Of a stretch of 64,000 bases of DNA, positions 2,121 through 39,508 are shown one piece after another. Location: positions 1,064-65,063 of the forward strand of contig CANQJR010000001.1 of the NCBI GenBank assembly GCA_947624275.1. The letters are read 5' to 3'. Both the position numbers and the translations under genes were made by a program. Each line of letters begins with the position of its first letter. Position 1 is the stretch's first letter. This DNA is from an uncultured Bacilli bacterium. GTDB lineage: Bacteria > Bacillota_I > Bacilli_A > RF39 > UBA660. Below the pieces are notes generated by a model, which saw only the letters and a program-made list of their open reading frames with translations, ran no database searches and was not told the DNA's origin.

Positions 2121-4598
2121 GTGAAAAGAAACATCAATAAACTGTTTTATGCCTTTTTATTAATCCAACCATTGATTGATCTCATAACGGGTATAATGAC
2201 TAAGTATGAAATAGGTTTTTTGTCCATCGGTATGCTCATAAGAGGATTATTCATATTGATGATGTTGATCTATTTATTCTTCTTTTGCAATACTAAATAT
2301 AAGAATTTGTCCATTGGTTATGTATTTTTATTATTGTTGTATTGTATCGCATACTTTGTCTCTAAGACAGAGTTGTTGACCAACACGGCCTTTTTCATCA
2401 ACGATTTTACTTATTTGTTCAAATACATCTATTTTTTATTGTTGTTCATAACTATCTTGAACTTCTATCATCAATTCGCTTTGGAACGCGAGACAATAAT
2501 AAAGATATTTGTCATCGATTTATCGGCATACGTCTTTTTGATCATTTTGCCTTTTATCACCAACAGCAGTTTTACTTCATATTATCAAAATAAAGGGTAT
2601 GGAGTAGTCGGATGGTTTTACGCTGCCAATGACATCAGTAATATTCTGGCCATCTTATTTCCGTTACTAATCTATTCAATGAATAAAAAATTTGATTTTT
2701 TTAAAGTGTTATTAGCTGTGTTTGCCATCTTTTCCAGTTTTTTAATTGGTACTAAAGTAGCTTATTTTGGACTTCTTTTAACCATTGTTTTCAGCATCAT
2801 TTATTATCTATTCTTTTTTAAGAAGAGATGGAAACATCTGATCATGTTGGTTCTTCTCTTACTATTTGCCATTTTTTTTGGAAAAAATTCTTATGTCATC
2901 GAAAATATTAAGAATCGCATTGATAGATATGACCATTATCAAGATACGGGAACGAATGAAATTGATGACGATCTCGATATCATTGTCAAAGATGGCGATA
3001 GTGAAATCAGTCTCGTATTATTGAGTTCTAGAGATAGGATACTTCAAAATACATATGATATTTACAAGACGCGTGCTTTGGGAGAGAAACTTTTTGGAAT
3101 CGGTTTTTCCAATCGACCAAGTGTCGATAACTCTCGCATTGAAAAATTGATCGAAATGGATTTCTTTGACGTGTTATTTCATGGAGGAATCATCTTAGTG
3201 ATCTTATATCTATTACCATATCTCTTCCTCCTCAGCTATTTCGTGAACTATCTCAAAGTGAACAAATGGCATATCGATATGTTGGGATGGACCTTGGGTT
3301 ATGCGATTGGCCTTGGCTTTTGCATCAGTTGTTTTGGTGGACACCTCTTTTCTTCACCAGCCGTGCTCATATATTATACAATGCTGTTGATTCTCTTCCT
3401 CGATGTCTATGAGACCGAAAAAAAATTGAAAAAGAGAATATCATTCCTTTTGTTGCATTTGGGAAATGGTGGTATCGAAAGATCGACCATCAATACGGCA
3501 AATGCTTTGGCTAAATATTTTGACATAGAGTTAGTCGTCACTTATAAACTTTCTGAAGAATTGTTATATGACGTCGATAAAAAAATAAAAATAACTTATT
3601 TGATCGATAGTGATATAGCTCTACGTCTACAAAAATATAAAGAAATGTTAAAACGCCGTGAGCTGAGAGCTCTTTATCAAAGTCTTAAAAACGATTATTT
3701 TAAAACGCATCGCTTTAAAAATTTTTGGAAAGATGTTAGTGATGGTTGTCGCGTTTTGGTTTTGAAGAGAAAGACGATGATCAACTATTTAAAACAGAGT
3801 GATAGCGATATCATCATTTCGACGCGAATGGAATACTCGACGCTTTTGAGTCAATATGGACATAATAATTGTAAAAAGATAATGATTGAGCACCAGCATC
3901 ATCGTCACAATGCGAAATATATTAAAAAGTTTAGTACAGAACTTAAGAATATCAACTATTTGGTAGCATTGACGGAGAGTTTGCGAAGCGATTACTATCA
4001 TTTCATCGCTCGCGATGCTAAAACGGAGATAGTGTGCATTCCCAATATGATAGTTGATTTCCCAAGACGAACAGCTAACTTAAAAAGTGGTACCGTCATC
4101 AGTATCGGTCGTTTAGTTGAAGGCAAAAGAGTTGATGAAATAGTGGAAGTAGCGGCTAAAATACCAAAAGTCAACTTTGAAATAATTGGCGATGGTGATC
4201 AGATGGACAAACTTAAGAAGTTGATCGATGAAAAAAATATCAATAACGTCAATCTCCTCGGTCAATTGAAAAATGACGAAGCCTTAAAACATCTATCCAA
4301 AGCCAGTCTCTTCATCATGACTAGCGTCACCGAATGCTTACCAATGGTTTTGTTGGAGGCCTTCAGTTATGGTGTTCCAGTCGTCGCTTATCAAACAGAG
4401 AGTGGTGTCTCTGATATTGTGGATGATGGTATCAATGGCTATGTCATTCAAAATCGTCACCGTGAAGAAATGATTGAAAGGGTTAACGAATTGATGAATG
4501 ATCCTAAAAAAAGACAAACTTTTGGCAAAGAGGCAAAAAAGAAAGCGCTCTCTTATAGTGAAGAAGAAGTCATAAAGAAATGGTTAGAAATATTATGA
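2121..4598 (+). CDS. Fusion protein: polytopic O-antigen ligase/polymerase-like (Wzy_C) membrane domain + GT4 (GT1 superfamily) glycosyltransferase
   Basis: GTG start with RBS AGGAGGTGA. About 10-12 TM helices with a RALGEKLFGIGFSN loop and an FHGGIILV (His) motif, as in WaaL/Wzy. C-terminal half has the GT4 signature (EAFSYGVPVVAY...GINGYV). Confidence 0.7.
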   Translation: MKRNINKLFYAFLLIQPLIDLITGIMTKYEIGFLSIGMLIRGLFILMMLIYLFFFCNTKYKNLSIGYVFLLLLYCIAYFVSKTELLTNTAFFINDFTYLFKYIYFLLLFITILNFYHQFALERETIIKIFVIDLSAYVFLIILPFITNSSFTSYYQNKGYGVVGWFYAANDISNILAILFPLLIYSMNKKFDFFKVLLAVFAIFSSFLIGTKVAYFGLLLTIVFSIIYYLFFFKKRWKHLIMLVLLLLFAIFFGKNSYVIENIKNRIDRYDHYQDTGTNEIDDDLDIIVKDGDSEISLVLLSSRDRILQNTYDIYKTRALGEKLFGIGFSNRPSVDNSRIEKLIEMDFFDVLFHGGIILVILYLLPYLFLLSYFVNYLKVNKWHIDMLGWTLGYAIGLGFCISCFGGHLFSSPAVLIYYTMLLILFLDVYETEKKLKKRISFLLLHLGNGGIERSTINTANALAKYFDIELVVTYKLSEELLYDVDKKIKITYLIDSDIALRLQKYKEMLKRRELRALYQSLKNDYFKTHRFKNFWKDVSDGCRVLVLKRKTMINYLKQSDSDIIISTRMEYSTLLSQYGHNNCKKIMIEHQHHRHNAKYIKKFSTELKNINYLVALTESLRSDYYHFIARDAKTEIVCIPNMIVDFPRRTANLKSGTVISIGRLVEGKRVDEIVEVAAKIPKVNFEIIGDGDQMDKLKKLIDEKNINNVNLLGQLKNDEALKHLSKASLFIMTSVTECLPMVLLEAFSYGVPVVAYQTESGVSDIVDDGINGYVIQNRHREEMIERVNELMNDPKKRQTFGKEAKKKALSYSEEEVIKKWLEIL

Positions 4599-34857: not shown

Positions 34858-34864
34858 TTGTAAA

Positions 34865-34889
34865 AGACGAAAAAAATCGTCTTTTTTTT
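34865..34889 (+). terminator. Rho-independent terminator
   Basis: AGACGA-aaaaaa-TCGTCT stem followed by TTTTTTTT. Confidence 0.6.
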
Positions 34890-35306
34890 GTTCGACAAAT
34901 GTTCGATTTGTGAATCGTGTTAAATGACGTCAAGAAAAATGGAAATTTTTACATATTTTTGAAAAAAAAGAATTTTTTCATTCGATATATTAATTGGGAA
35001 AAAATAAAAAAATTAAAAAAAATTAAAAATTGAAAATGTCAAATTTTCAATTTTTTTCAAAAAAAATTAAAATGTAAACCAAAGTTAAAAATGTGTTAAT
35101 TCCTTTAAAATCAAGGAAAAATGTCTTTTTAAAGCACAAAAATAATTTTTTTAAAAAAATCAAAAAAATGAAAATGTCAAAAATGTAAAATTTAAAAAAA
35201 ATAATTTTTTGGTGAAAATTATTTGTTTGTCTTGATATATAAGAGAAATAGTTTATTGCATAGAACAAATATTCGAAAATTTAATAAAAAAACTTCCGAA
35301 ATATTA

Positions 35307-35336
35307 TTGACTATGACAAAAAAATTATATTACAAT
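35307..35336 (+). promoter_or_regulatory. Sigma-A-type promoter of nrdD (TTGACT-18-TACAAT)
   Basis: Near-consensus -35 and -10 hexamers about 40 nt upstream of the nrdD ATG. Confidence 0.5.
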
Positions 35337-35376
35337 GGCATTGAAAAGAGGTAATATTGAAAGGAGTATTTTGTTT

Positions 35377-37686
35377 ATGAATGAAGAGACTTTAAACAAC
35401 TTGAAAGTAGTCAAAAGAAATGGTAAAAAAGTTGATTTTGACGGAACAAAAATTGCTGTTGCAATAAAAAAAGGTTTTGATAATTTAAAAACGGATCGTT
35501 ATGCATATTTATCTTTAGGTAATGAATATACTGAAAAAGATAGCCAAAAAGTATTTCAATCTGTTATGAAGAGAATAGATAAAGAATATAGAGACGCTGA
35601 TAAGATTAAAATTGAAGAAATTCAAGACATGATTGAAGATGAACTCAAGAAAAAAGGTTATACAGATGTATATGAATCTTTTGCTGATTATCGTGAGAAG
35701 AGAAGACAATCACGTGAAATGTTCTCCGATGATAAAAAGATGCATAAATTCTTGAAGACGATAGAAGGTTTAGGACTAAAGTCATCTGTTGAAGACAACA
35801 CTAAGAGAGAAAATGCTAACGTCAATGGTGATACAGCTATGGGAACGATGCTTCAATACGGTTCAACTGTATCCAAAGAATTTGCTAAAGATTATTTGAT
35901 GAAAAAGAAATTTGCTGATCTTCATGACAATGGTGATATTCACATCCATGATTTGGATTTTATGCCAATGGGAACTACTACTTGTATGCAAATCGATTTG
36001 GAAAAATTGTTCAAGAATGGTTTTTCGACAGGACATGGACATTTGAGAACACCAAATGACATCATGAGTTATACAGCTCTAGCTGCTATCGCCATCCAAT
36101 CAAATCAAAATGATCAACATGGTGGACAGAGCATTCCTGCTTTTGATTATTATATGGCTCCAGGAGTGTTGAAGACGTTTAAAAAACAATTTAAACAGAC
36201 GATTGCTGATCTATTAGATTATACTGATTTTAATAAATTTATAAACATGAGTACCATTGCTAAAGACATCGATAAAATTGATAGTATTGATGTCGATCTC
36301 GCAATGTTTGAGAAGTATGAGAAAGATAGTGGACAACTACATCGCTTATTTTCAATGGCTTATGATAAAGCTCTAGCTAAAACTGATCGCATCACTTTTC
36401 AAGCTATGGAGGCTTTCGTTCACAATTTGAACACGATGCATTCAAGAGCTGGTGCACAAGTACCATTCTCATCTATCAATTTCGGAACAGATACATCACT
36501 AGAGGGAAGAATGGTCATCAAGAATTATTTGTTAGCTGTCGACAAAGGATTAGGACATAGTGAGACTCCAATTTTCCCAATATCAATTTTTAAGGTAAAA
36601 GAAGGAGTTAACTATAATCCAGAAGATCCAAACTACGATTTATTCAAATTGTCTTGTAAAGTTTCAGCTAAGAGATTATTCCCTAATTTTTCATTTATCG
36701 ATGCACCATTCAATCTTCAGTATTATAATCCTAATGATTATCGTACAGAAGTTGGTTATATGGGATGTCGTACGAGAGTTTTAGCCAATGTCGTCGATCC
36801 AGATCGTGCCATTACACCTGGACGTGGTAATTTGTCATTTACATCAATCAATTTGCCACGATTAGGAATTAAACATGGTAAGGTATTGGGTAGAGAAGAA
36901 ACTGATTTAGATGGTTTCTTTGAAGAACTCGGTGAGTTGGTTGAGACGGTCAAAGATCAATTATTGGAGAGATTTGAGATTCAATGTAGTAAACATATCT
37001 ATAACTTCCCATTCTTACTCGGACAAGGCGTTTGGTTAGATTCTGAGAAGTTAAAAGATAATGACCGCATTAGAAGAGTGTTGAAACATGGAACTTTAAG
37101 TATCGGTTTCATCGGACTTGCTGAATGCTTAAAAGCTTTGATAGGACAACATCATGGTGAGAGTGACGAAGCTCAAGAATTAGGTCTAAAAATAGTTAAA
37201 TTCATTAGAGATAAATGTGATGAATATTCACAACGCTATAATCTAAACTTTACTTGTTTAGCAACACCTGCTGAAGGGTTGAGTGGAAGGTTTACAAGTA
37301 TTGATAAAGCCATATATGGTAAGATCAAAGGCGTTACAGATCGTGCTTATTACACCAATTCTTTCCACGTTCCAGTATATTACAACATAACTATTAAAAA
37401 TAAACTTCATAAGGAAGGACCATATCATGCCTTGACTAATGCTGGACACATCTCTTATATCGAATTAGATGGTGATCCAAGTGAAAACTTAGATGCCTTC
37501 GAAAGAGTGATAAGAATTATGAAAGAAGAAGGAATTGGTTATGGAGCTGTCAACCATCCTGTTGATCGCGATCCTGTTTGTGGATATGTCGGGGTTATTG
37601 GTGACGTTTGCCCAGGTTGCGGAAGACGCGAGGGTGAAGGTGTAAGTTATGAGAAAATGACTACATTAAATTGTGGTTGTAAATAA
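35377..37686 (+). CDS. nrdD: Anaerobic ribonucleoside-triphosphate reductase (class III), catalytic body ending after the Cys-rich zinc-ribbon segment
   Basis: N-terminal ATP-cone (VVKRNGKKVDFDGTKIAVAIKKGF); class III RNR core; C-terminus ...VCGYVGVIGDVCPGCGRREGEGVSYEKMTTLNCGCK then stop; RBS AAAGGAG. Confidence 0.85.
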   Translation: MNEETLNNLKVVKRNGKKVDFDGTKIAVAIKKGFDNLKTDRYAYLSLGNEYTEKDSQKVFQSVMKRIDKEYRDADKIKIEEIQDMIEDELKKKGYTDVYESFADYREKRRQSREMFSDDKKMHKFLKTIEGLGLKSSVEDNTKRENANVNGDTAMGTMLQYGSTVSKEFAKDYLMKKKFADLHDNGDIHIHDLDFMPMGTTTCMQIDLEKLFKNGFSTGHGHLRTPNDIMSYTALAAIAIQSNQNDQHGGQSIPAFDYYMAPGVLKTFKKQFKQTIADLLDYTDFNKFINMSTIAKDIDKIDSIDVDLAMFEKYEKDSGQLHRLFSMAYDKALAKTDRITFQAMEAFVHNLNTMHSRAGAQVPFSSINFGTDTSLEGRMVIKNYLLAVDKGLGHSETPIFPISIFKVKEGVNYNPEDPNYDLFKLSCKVSAKRLFPNFSFIDAPFNLQYYNPNDYRTEVGYMGCRTRVLANVVDPDRAITPGRGNLSFTSINLPRLGIKHGKVLGREETDLDGFFEELGELVETVKDQLLERFEIQCSKHIYNFPFLLGQGVWLDSEKLKDNDRIRRVLKHGTLSIGFIGLAECLKALIGQHHGESDEAQELGLKIVKFIRDKCDEYSQRYNLNFTCLATPAEGLSGRFTSIDKAIYGKIKGVTDRAYYTNSFHVPVYYNITIKNKLHKEGPYHALTNAGHISYIELDGDPSENLDAFERVIRIMKEEGIGYGAVNHPVDRDPVCGYVGVIGDVCPGCGRREGEGVSYEKMTTLNCGCK

Positions 37687-37709
37687 AAAAAGAAGAGAGG
37701 TAGAAAAAT

Positions 37710-37892
37710 ATGAAAAATGAAATGAAAGAAGAAGAAAAGAAAAATGTAAAAATGGTAGGGGAAGGTGTAGGATTCGAAAGAATTAGAAGAATTACTGGAT
37801 ATCTAGTAGGTACTGTTGATCGCTTTAACGATGCTAAACGTGCTGAAGTAGAAGATCGAGTAAAACATGGTGGAAAAGAAGTTTATCTATAG
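37710..37892 (+). CDS. Separate 60-aa glycyl-radical domain protein matching the NrdD C-terminal tail (RITGYLVG...KRAEVEDRVKH)
   Basis: Own RBS (GAGAGG) and ATG 23 nt after the nrdD stop, in a different frame. Contains the NrdD-type glycyl radical motif R-I-T-G-Y-L and the tail GK/AKRAEVxDRVKH. Confidence 0.65.
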   Translation: MKNEMKEEEKKNVKMVGEGVGFERIRRITGYLVGTVDRFNDAKRAEVEDRVKHGGKEVYL

Positions 37893-37894
37893 AG

Positions 37895-38455
37895 ATGAAC
37901 ATTCGTTTAGCTGCACCGCTTCAGAGAAATAGCATTGTTGATGGAGAAGGAATTAGGGCAGTTGTTTGGACACAGGGGTGTACGCATAATTGCCCTGGTT
38001 GTCACAATCCAGAAACTCATGATTTGACTGGTGGTACTTTGGTGGATATTGAAGAATTGAAAAAAGAGATTAGGTCTTTGAGTGAGGAAAATGGCGTGAC
38101 GTTGAGTGGTGGCGATCCTTTCTTTCAACCAAAAGAATGCCTAGAAGTTGCTAAATGTTGTCATGAATGTGGCTTAAACGTTTGGTGCTATACTGGATAT
38201 ACATATGAACAACTAATGGCATTAGCGAAAAAAAAGAAACAGATTTTGGCTTTTCTGCAAGAGATAGATGTCTTAGTAGATGGACCTTTTATCCTTAAAG
38301 AAAAGAGTTATGATGTCAAATTTCGCGGTTCTAAGAATCAACGCATAATTGATGTCCGTCAGAGTCTAAAGACTAATAAAGTAGTTGAAATTCCTAAATA
38401 TCGTTATGTTGAAAACGCTGTTCCTGAAGAGAGAGAAATAAAGGTATACATTTGA
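37895..38455 (+). CDS. nrdG: Anaerobic ribonucleotide reductase-activating protein (radical SAM)
   Basis: CTHNCPGC radical-SAM cluster motif; position downstream of nrdD. Confidence 0.85.
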   Translation: MNIRLAAPLQRNSIVDGEGIRAVVWTQGCTHNCPGCHNPETHDLTGGTLVDIEELKKEIRSLSEENGVTLSGGDPFFQPKECLEVAKCCHECGLNVWCYTGYTYEQLMALAKKKKQILAFLQEIDVLVDGPFILKEKSYDVKFRGSKNQRIIDVRQSLKTNKVVEIPKYRYVENAVPEEREIKVYI

Positions 38456-38480
38456 GAGTGCTTGATGGCACTCTTTTTGT
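38455..38480 (+). terminator. Rho-independent terminator after nrdG
   Basis: AGAGTGC-ttgatg-GCACTCT stem followed by TTTTTGT. Confidence 0.7.
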
Positions 38481-38504: not shown

Positions 38505-38684
38505 ATGGATAATAAAGATGTGATTGCAAAAGAAAATATGCTGTCAAAAGAGATGATGGAAAAAATAAAAAATAAAGCACAAAAAAATGATGAGGGTGAT
38601 GAGGCGATTGCTGATTTCACTTATGATGCTATGATATCTAAAAAAGAGAACTATGAAGACATCTATAAGGATTATGGTGATTGA
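38505..38684 (+). CDS. Small acidic hypothetical protein (59 aa, MDNKDVIAKENMLSKEMMEKIKNK...)
   Basis: RBS GAGGAG 6 nt upstream; TATAAT box upstream; below the ORF-track cutoff. Confidence 0.35.
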   Translation: MDNKDVIAKENMLSKEMMEKIKNKAQKNDEGDEAIADFTYDAMISKKENYEDIYKDYGD

Positions 38685-38686
38685 TC

Positions 38687-39508
38687 GTGAAAAGAGCTGA
38701 TTTGCACAATCACACTTATTATTCAGATGGTGAGTATTCCTTGGCGGAAGTTGTTAAAAAGGCCAAAGAAAAGGGTTTGACGATGATTGGCATCACTGAT
38801 CATGATAATGTCGAAAGTTATAATGATTATCAAAAAATGAGAGATAAAATTGATATAGATGTTTTAATTGGAGTTGAATTGTCATCCAATCATCGGGGTC
38901 ATCGAGTTCACATCATCGGCTTTTTTTATCACAATAATCCCTTAAGTAAAGAATTGTTAGATTATTTGGAACAACTTCGCATTAAAAGAATCAATCGAGC
39001 TAAAGAGATGATTGCCAATTTAGATAGATATTACAATATTAAAATTGACTATGAAGAATTGGTTAAAAAAACGAAGTCAATCATCGCTCGACCTCATATG
39101 GCAAGATATATTGCTGAAAAATATCATATGAGTGAAGAAGAGGCTTTTTCTAGATATTTAACTAGTGATGGCAAAGCTTATGTTCCCTCATCCAATATTG
39201 CAACTGAAGACGCTATTGAATTGCTGCATCGCAATAATGCGATCGCGATTTGGGCCCATCCAGTCTTAAATAGAGGTGAGTTTCCCGAAAAGGAAATAAT
39301 TGATATGGGAATTGATGGCATCGAAGGATTTTATCCCAATAACACCAAGATGGATACTATGCATTATCGCCATTTGGCTAATACGTATAATTTACTCTTT
39401 ACAGCGGGGAGCGACTATCATGATGAACATTCCCACAGCGCTATTGGAACGTGTTATCTCAAGGATAGAGATATTGATAAACTGTTGAAAAAATTAAAAC
39501 AAAAATAA
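38687..39508 (+). CDS. PHP-domain metal-dependent phosphoesterase (TrpH/YciV-like)
   Basis: ADLHNHTYYSDGEYS...GITDHDN PHP motifs; GTG 38687 after GGTGA. The ORF track begins at TTG 38681. Confidence 0.8.
   Translation: MKRADLHNHTYYSDGEYSLAEVVKKAKEKGLTMIGITDHDNVESYNDYQKMRDKIDIDVLIGVELSSNHRGHRVHIIGFFYHNNPLSKELLDYLEQLRIKRINRAKEMIANLDRYYNIKIDYEELVKKTKSIIARPHMARYIAEKYHMSEEEAFSRYLTSDGKAYVPSSNIATEDAIELLHRNNAIAIWAHPVLNRGEFPEKEIIDMGIDGIEGFYPNNTKMDTMHYRHLANTYNLLFTAGSDYHDEHSHSAIGTCYLKDRDIDKLLKKLKQK

Follow-up and report, generated by a model that had tools for sequence, protein, structure and literature searches.

In all described class III (anaerobic) ribonucleotide reductases (RNRs), the glycyl radical loop forms the C terminus of the NrdD chain itself. 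The glycyl radical domain of the Prevotella copri enzyme is made up of a zinc site, a loop with the buried Gly711, and a C-terminal tail, in that order (P. copri NrdD structure paper). Small free-standing copies of a glycyl radical C terminus, presumed to act in trans, are represented by the Escherichia coli protein GrcA (YfiD) and by Y06I of phage T4, and among classes of glycyl radical enzymes, only formate lyases have known spare-part proteins of this kind (June 2026 review, PMC13450708). GrcA is of the pyruvate formate-lyase (PFL) type (Pfam Gly_radical), and its gene lies away from pflB; since PFL keeps a glycine domain of its own, which the small protein replaces only after oxidative cleavage, GrcA is a spare. 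Here we describe a locus in a 64,000-nt stretch of DNA from an uncultured, low-GC Bacilli bacterium of the gut (GenBank assembly GCA_947624275.1, contig CANQJR010000001.1, positions 1,064 to 65,063 of the forward strand; "the window" below means this whole stretch) in which nrdD stops short of the glycyl radical loop and a separate gene of 60 codons, placed between nrdD and the activase gene nrdG, carries the loop instead. We consider it likely, with a probability of roughly 0.8, that this operon encodes an obligate two-chain class III RNR of the anaerobic, formate-dependent type together with its activase, the radical-bearing chain acting in trans.

The Glycyl Radical Loop of NrdD Is Encoded by a Separate Small Gene

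Three consecutive genes on the + strand of the window encode a truncated NrdD (hereafter, the body), a small glycyl radical protein, and NrdG. The large open reading frame (ORF) spans positions 35335..37686. The likely start of the body gene is ATG 35377 behind GAAAGGAG (gene at 35377..37686, +), which yields 769 amino acids (aa) and matches the length of relatives' gene calls; an earlier sequence-only reading of this DNA had the start right and gave the length as 783 aa, a figure that counts from the first in-frame ATG at 35335. The product comprises an ATP-cone, a 10-stranded barrel core, and a zinc ribbon, has no glycyl radical loop, and ends with ...CPGCGRREGEGVSYEKMTTLNCGCK, followed by a TAA stop. 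As the same reading had described, an independent small ORF lies in a different frame 23 nt downstream, the intercistronic spacer (37687..37709, +) containing the Shine-Dalgarno (SD) sequence GAGAGG. This ORF runs from ATG 37710 to a TAG stop (37710..37892, +), and its 60-aa product, MKNEMKEEEKKNVKMVGEGVGFERIRRITGYLVGTVDRFNDAKRAEVEDRVKHGGKEVYL, consists of a Lys/Glu-rich N-terminal extension, an NrdD-type glycyl radical loop, and a C-terminal helix and tail.

In profile searches, the body and the small ORF together spanned one NrdD exactly, with an overlap of ~6 duplicated positions (GEGVSYE / GEGVGFE). The body matched the NCBIfam model PRK07111 over positions 3–715 of 746 with 1018.9 bits (cut-off 764) and, in Pfam, NRDD (PF13597) over positions 1–531 of 562 (617 bits) and ATP-cone (55 bits). 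The small ORF matched PRK07111 over positions 710–744 and NRDD over positions 533–562, the latter being its sole Pfam match, with none to Gly_radical (PF01228). When P. copri NrdD was used for comparison, the body (E = 1.4e-171) aligned up to CPKCGSH, at chain residue 705, and the small protein with residues 709–740 (KLQRITGYLVG...). Relative to the canonical enzyme, the large chain ends at the equivalent of residue ~705, and the loop (equivalent of ~709–740) is a separate product with a new N-terminal extension. Because the zinc ribbon is on the body and the loop and tail are on the small protein, the split falls inside the glycyl radical domain. The profile tiling and the alignment to P. copri NrdD bear out two claims of the sequence-only reading, that nrdD is fissioned with the body stop right after the zinc ribbon and that the small ORF is the NrdD glycyl radical motif plus tail.

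Profile and sequence comparison found no R-x-x-G-Y glycyl radical loop in the body; the complete loop, whose presence in the body the sequence-only reading had named as the sign that would speak against a split, occurs only in the 60-aa gene, whose product is clearly of the NrdD type. There, the predicted radical glycine is Gly30 of RIRRITG30Y (GGA codon at 37797..37799, +), equivalent to P. copri Gly711. The alternative offered by the same reading, that the VCGYVG segment of the body is the radical site and the small ORF a rescue duplicate, did not stand: in P. copri NrdD, the counterpart of VCGY is CLDCGY, at the first cysteine of the zinc ribbon, and that enzyme has a separate Gly711 loop further on.

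The residues expected of a catalytic subunit are preserved in the body. An alignment of 36 split-type bodies showed no variation at C203, at C464 (in the YMGCRTRV finger loop), or at N485; these residues align with Cys171, Cys416 (radical-accepting), and Asn435 of P. copri NrdD, the last of which marks formate-dependent enzymes (P. copri NrdD structure paper). Models of vitamin-B12-dependent RNR matched the ATP-cone region alone (48 and 27 bits, far below their cut-offs), and the best models were NrdD equivalogs. Judged by its domains and conserved residues, the body would be a working catalytic subunit in every respect other than the glycine loop. Many NrdD homologues (P0130–P0220) are 900–1778 aa long, and their match is broken at query positions ~462–465 (beside C464) and ~636; these breaks are consistent with inteins inserted at conserved catalytic sites.

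The zinc-ribbon segment of the body (37579..37620, +; C735...C745-P-G-C748) has three cysteines, all invariant in the 36 split-type bodies, versus four in P. copri NrdD (DPVCGY...CPGCG versus CLDCGY...CPKCG). Its motif reads CGH in fused relatives versus CGY in split ones. The segment is followed by a C-terminal tail, EGEGVSYEKMTTLNCGCK (37630..37683, +), which ends in a C-x-C pair (37672–37683), and C-x-C or CC was found at the C terminus of 163 of 182 close body homologues (for example, NCGCK, QCDCR, and NCCK; P0278–P0460). The terminal pair may provide a fourth zinc ligand or form a redox pair.

The third gene, nrdG (37895..38455, +), starts 2 nt past the stop of the small gene. Its product is a radical-SAM activase that matched TIGR02491 with 149.4 bits (cut-off 126.1).

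The Split Layout Is Conserved across Many Independent Assemblies

Comparison with relatives, suggested by the sequence-only reading, found the stop and re-start to recur. In a survey of one genome per species that returned at least 598 relatives, the best 80 were classified: the small gene lies directly after a truncated nrdD in 66, nrdD is fused in 6, 7 carry orphan small genes, and 1 locus is at a contig end. In the neighborhoods inspected, the order truncated nrdD, small gene, nrdG recurs amid otherwise different surroundings. According to the titles of the genome records (bins of metagenome-assembled genomes [MAGs] as labelled), carriers include uncultured Bacilli, many families of Clostridia, Fibrobacter, Treponemataceae, and Muribaculaceae. 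A cultured carrier is "Bacterium 1XD42-1" (L009), and Fibrobacter succinogenes was seen as a MAG only (L011). An exact look-up of the body protein matched no record; the closest relative comes from a rabbit-gut MAG labelled "uncultured Bacilli" (L008).

The same picture emerged at the protein level. A glycine loop was found in none of the 182 clusters of close body homologues (at least 75% identity). A broader sample consisted of the best 150 representatives of 50%-identity clusters, drawn from 1.84 billion proteins, and 113 of these were complete at the C terminus. Fifty-nine of the 113 have the zinc ribbon and a short tail without a glycine loop, and 54 are fused; among the top 50 representatives, the complete ones (n = 48) divide into 35 without the loop and 13 fused. 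About half of the nearby NrdD clusters would look "truncated" to annotation pipelines and phylogenetic surveys or be mis-scored by them as incomplete.

The small protein itself is well conserved. Its 120 best matches are all stand-alone proteins of 47–76 aa from many contigs and sources. Among them, G17 E18 G19, F22–R27, T35, D37–N40, K43, E46, D49 R50, and K52 H53 are invariant or nearly so, and I28–G34 are conserved at 90% or above. Against its closest relatives, the small ORF has a ratio of nonsynonymous to synonymous substitution rates (dN/dS) of 0.05–0.08 at dS of 0.7–1.0 and is under strong purifying selection. No Pfam, NCBIfam, or PHROGs model is specific for this protein, and the sources give such small proteins no name.

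Taken alone, a single window would leave room for an indel, and the sequence-only reading had itself raised a frameshift error. We give practically no credence to the view that faulty sequencing or assembly, or the decay of a pseudogene, produced the split. A simple frameshift would not account for the ~100 nt of additional sequence between the two parts, which comprise a tail, a stop, an SD sequence, and a new N terminus; the layout recurs in many independent assemblies and sources; and dN/dS of the small ORF is low (0.05–0.08). With the layout conserved in dozens of assemblies obtained independently, neither chance nor sequencing error can explain it. The split nrdD layout is real, robust, and widespread.

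Recoding (frameshifting, read-through, or ribosome hopping) or protein trans-splicing could, in principle, still yield one normal NrdD chain from the two ORFs. In the window, GEGV is present both before and after the junction, and at 14 loci the two ORFs share a frame with a single stop between them. The junctions as a group nevertheless make this explanation very improbable. From locus to locus, the two reading frames differ by 0, +1, or +2, and 54 to 347 nt separate the body stop from the glycine motif; the small gene is preceded by a purine-rich SD sequence and an ATG of its own in 12 of the 12 junctions read (window included); and the codons flanking the junction are not conserved (GESVS versus GEGVG in L001). 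As for trans-splicing, a split intein would not fit into the tail (18–45 aa) and the N-terminal extension (8–25 aa), and neither ORF matched an intein domain. Finally, the small protein also exists as orphan copies, predicted to be expressed from their own loci.

Stand-Alone Copies of the Small Gene Occur in Bacteria and on Viral Contigs

Viral contigs (IMG/VR) contained 443 relatives of the small protein, of which the best 80 (L088–L167) were examined. By a regex screen, 75 of these 80 are stand-alone ORFs. phmmer detected an NrdD body within 3 kb at only 5 of the 80 loci, 3 of them counted as stand-alone by the regex; overall, about 70 of the 80 loci encode the small protein without an NrdD body within 3 kb. 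At L111 (3001–3165) and L160 (773–907), nrdG is directly upstream of the small gene with no body nearby, and the surroundings of L101 (small gene at 3001–3117) carry phage PHROG families. Among GenBank phages, the stand-alone protein was seen only on unannotated human-faecal contigs.

Several bacterial copies likewise do not adjoin nrdD (L029, L053, and L076 among them). The orphan at L015 (3501–3620) is located between genes for a Crp/Fnr-type regulator and rubrerythrin, a context resembling that of oxidative stress. In Bilophila wadsworthia ATCC 49260, the orphan (L067, 3501–3662) adjoins a C5 DNA methylase gene, and the same small ORF is present on a viral contig (L118). A variant of ~100–110 aa (L066:3312-3614, L081:2936-3265, and L143 [~2430–2652]) joins the FERIRRITGYLVG loop to an additional N-terminal domain (...IDAYT.QL....P.K.I..V.L.VDG.YVD..Y...); it has no adjacent nrdD body, and Pfam recognizes only the C-terminal 30 positions of NRDD in it.

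Since stand-alone copies exist, the radical module can serve a partner encoded elsewhere, and its occurrence by itself on phage contigs would imply that action in trans is possible. By analogy, the viral and bacterial orphans look like autonomous cofactors for NrdD in the manner of GrcA and Y06I.

The orphans also invite a different explanation of the window locus, in which the small protein is a GrcA-like spare for an intact NrdD encoded elsewhere and the truncated body is inactive or has another role. Copies far from any nrdD (L015, L029, L053, L066, L067, L076, L081, and ~70 viral contigs) would fit this explanation, as would the fact that only 64 kb of the genome are in view. We nonetheless judge it unlikely. 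The catalytic residues of the body are invariant; the small gene comes right after the truncated body in the 66 of 80 genomes noted above, across many divergent species; none of the 182 close clusters is intact; and no second NrdD, other glycyl radical enzyme, or further glycine motif was found within the 64-kb window.

A wider proposal can be built on the obligate two-chain enzyme. In a large fraction of anaerobes, the class III RNR radical might reside on a diffusible cofactor of 6–7 kDa that is made, activated, consumed, and replaced apart from an 88-kDa core, and phages might bring a copy of their own, sometimes accompanied by nrdG, that docks into host cores and raises the supply of deoxynucleoside triphosphates. 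This proposal is tentative, and we would put its chances at somewhat under even. If true, nature would have a modular "radical cartridge" system, in which the copies on phages form a spare-part branch similar to GrcA and Y06I; the phage-borne orphans suggest that gut viromes contain a new auxiliary metabolic gene.

The Body Tail Resembles the Beginning of the Loop

The body tail repeats the start of the conserved part of the small chain, VGEGVGFERIRRITGYLV. MAFFT twice aligned body tails with GEGVGFERIRRIT. A profile built from small proteins scored many real body tails at 5–11 bits, whereas only 10 of 2960 shuffled tails scored in that range. Longer tails of 29–30 aa, ...EKLKELRKKYPNMPHFVGIE, occur in other lineages, and in a further set of bodies (L009, L012, L018, L039, L059, and L068; P0136, P0138, P0142, P0143, P0170, and P0210) tails of 41–53 aa such as ...KLGVYRGNTDNCGYCGDINEEKDR... 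keep a GY dipeptide and EE.DR, like the real loop and helix, and have an extra C-G-x-C-G motif. These longest tails could be near-full-length degenerate copies of the radical domain. If their glycine still holds a radical, the small gene would be a true spare in those lineages.

Together, these resemblances are suggestive of the body tail being what is left, in degenerate form, of the glycine loop's first half. Because the body keeps such a remnant, a fused nrdD probably gave rise to the split when its 3' end was duplicated in tandem. After the duplication, the upstream copy would have decayed, leaving the body tail and the longer vestiges of other lineages, and the downstream copy would have gained its own ribosome-binding site.

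Six fused nrdD genes (L050, L057, L063, L069, L077, and L086; Ruminococcus/Oscillospiraceae) fell inside the split clade of a neighbor-joining tree that is in effect unrooted, lacks support values, and was built from a biased sample. The fused genes read ...CGRKEGSNGVGFERIRRITGY, as if the tail, spacer, and N-terminal extension had been precisely deleted. Tentatively, the fused forms amid split ones may reflect re-fusion (between the GEGV repeats) or repeated fission.

Structural Modeling and a Proposed Mechanism

Body residues 121–769 and the small chain were modelled with AlphaFold2 as an artificial single chain, using an alignment that included fused homologues and anchor rows made from the window sequence. 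The model reached a mean predicted local distance difference test score (pLDDT) of 90.2 and a predicted template modeling score (pTM) of 0.91. In it, the small chain forms a strand, loop, and helix like a glycyl radical domain (pLDDT 68–89), and the junction (the end of the body tail and the N terminus of the small chain) has pLDDT <50. A single-sequence run of body and small chain was uninformative (pLDDT 36). As top matches to the model, Foldseek returned the P. copri chains for which more residues had been modelled (8p2s_B: TMt 0.91 over 712 alignment columns); P. copri chains of 542–552 residues gave TMq of 0.71–0.72 over 584–588 columns. In the P. copri NrdD complex, the radical domain is ordered in only one monomer (P. 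copri NrdD structure paper).

In the mechanism that we propose, NrdG would abstract a hydrogen atom from Gly30 of the small protein, whose loop would then insert into the body barrel beside Cys464, as ordinary NrdD inserts its own C-terminal domain in cis; in each turnover, the radical would shuttle between Gly30 and Cys464. Because oxygen cleaves glycyl radical proteins at the radical glycine, oxygen damage would cost only the replaceable 7-kDa chain, and the enzyme itself would thus embody the spare-part principle. If true, this would extend that principle beyond formate lyases.

How activases gain access to the buried glycine of glycyl radical enzymes is a long-standing question, as the radical domain must leave the barrel, and to our knowledge no activase-enzyme complex of a full glycyl radical enzyme has been captured. 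A free loop would be easier for the activase to reach, with no swing of a domain out of the barrel needed, and the presence of the glycine loop in a free 60-residue protein makes activase access directly testable. Even in the fused P. copri enzyme, the glycyl radical domain is already highly mobile (P. copri NrdD structure paper).

Several points weigh against an obligate two-chain enzyme. Docking of the small chain in our model is essentially homology modeling and indicates compatibility, not proof. The complex, the radical on the small chain, and the enzyme activity are all computational predictions. The homology of the body tail to the loop, at 5–11 bits, is weak and at most suggestive. The 64 kb in view are part of a genome in which an intact second nrdD or another class of RNR may be present elsewhere. 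Lastly, the selective advantage of the split, be it repair or easier activation, is speculative.

Transcription Unit and Neighboring Sequences

A promoter-like site, TTGACT-18-TACAAT (35307..35336, +; 10 of 12 matches in a scan for consensus only), lies upstream of the operon and downstream of the preceding gene's terminator (34862–34885). At the other end of the three genes, a terminator-like hairpin is followed by a T-run (38454..38475, +). Because of these two elements and the tight spacing, nrdD body, small gene, and nrdG look like one transcription unit.

AAAATGTMAA has 8 matches window-wide versus 2.4 expected, a number that no shuffle reached, and 4 of the 8 (35033, 35069, 35171, and 35180; region 35033–35189) are within the AT-rich 450-nt leader of nrdD. 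This sequence may be a candidate regulator-binding repeat. Directly downstream of the nrdG terminator, an ORF for a 59-aa acidic protein with no Pfam family (38505–38684) overlaps by 4 nt the start of a gene for a PHP-domain protein (38681–39508); in relatives L001–L004, a gene of 58–74 aa is called at the same position.

Comparison with Known Systems

With the canonical NrdD/NrdG systems (P. copri, PDB 8p23/8p2s; T4; E. coli), the locus shares the ATP-cone, barrel, formate-type Cys/Cys/Asn set, zinc ribbon, RxxGY loop sequence, and adjacent NrdG activase. The PDB structures of NrdD that were matched are fused forms only. The likeness to GrcA, to which the sequence-only reading had drawn attention, is apt as an analogy and does not extend to membership: although phage-borne versions exist for both GrcA/Y06I and the NrdD-type small protein, the latter is encoded inside the nrdD-nrdG operon beside a parent that has no glycine loop of its own, and it looks obligate rather than spare.

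The (incomplete) literature searched contained no account of a class III RNR whose glycine loop has a gene of its own, in agreement with the statement of the sequence-only reading that no class III equivalent had been described and with the recent review (PMC13450708). Reports on "split nrdD" concern phage introns and inteins, and those on a gene "between nrdD and nrdG" concern the T4 endonuclease MobC. As far as the searched literature goes, the two-chain architecture is an undescribed variant of a well-known enzyme.

RNR genes in pieces that are presumed functional are nevertheless familiar from phages, where nrdD and nrdA are interrupted by group I introns, inteins, and homing endonucleases (T4 nrdD; the "genes in pieces" nrdA of Aeh1). 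There, a mobile element is inside the gene and the split positions are other ones, whereas the nrdD of the window has a 23-nt spacer and a split that is ancient and widespread in bacteria. A profile search found no intein, HNH, or GIY-YIG domain in the nrdD body or the small ORF, and an Rfam search of the window gave no match, hence no intron match either.

Another parallel is the split class II enzyme NrdJa/NrdJb of Pseudomonas aeruginosa and Thermus phage phiYS40, whose catalytic subunit is likewise spread over two successive ORFs separated by a short spacer, with the C-terminal, zinc-finger-containing part as a separate chain. It differs in belonging to the B12-dependent class, in its split point, and in having no protein radical on the small piece. 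In class I RNR, a separate, smaller subunit stores the stable radical and passes it to a cysteine of the catalytic subunit. The proteins and chemistry are unrelated (the smaller subunit is a ferritin-like metalloprotein, and delivery proceeds by long-range proton-coupled electron transfer), so the likeness is one of analogy only; if the two-chain reading of the nrdD operon is true, class III RNR would gain a separate radical-carrying subunit, as in class I.

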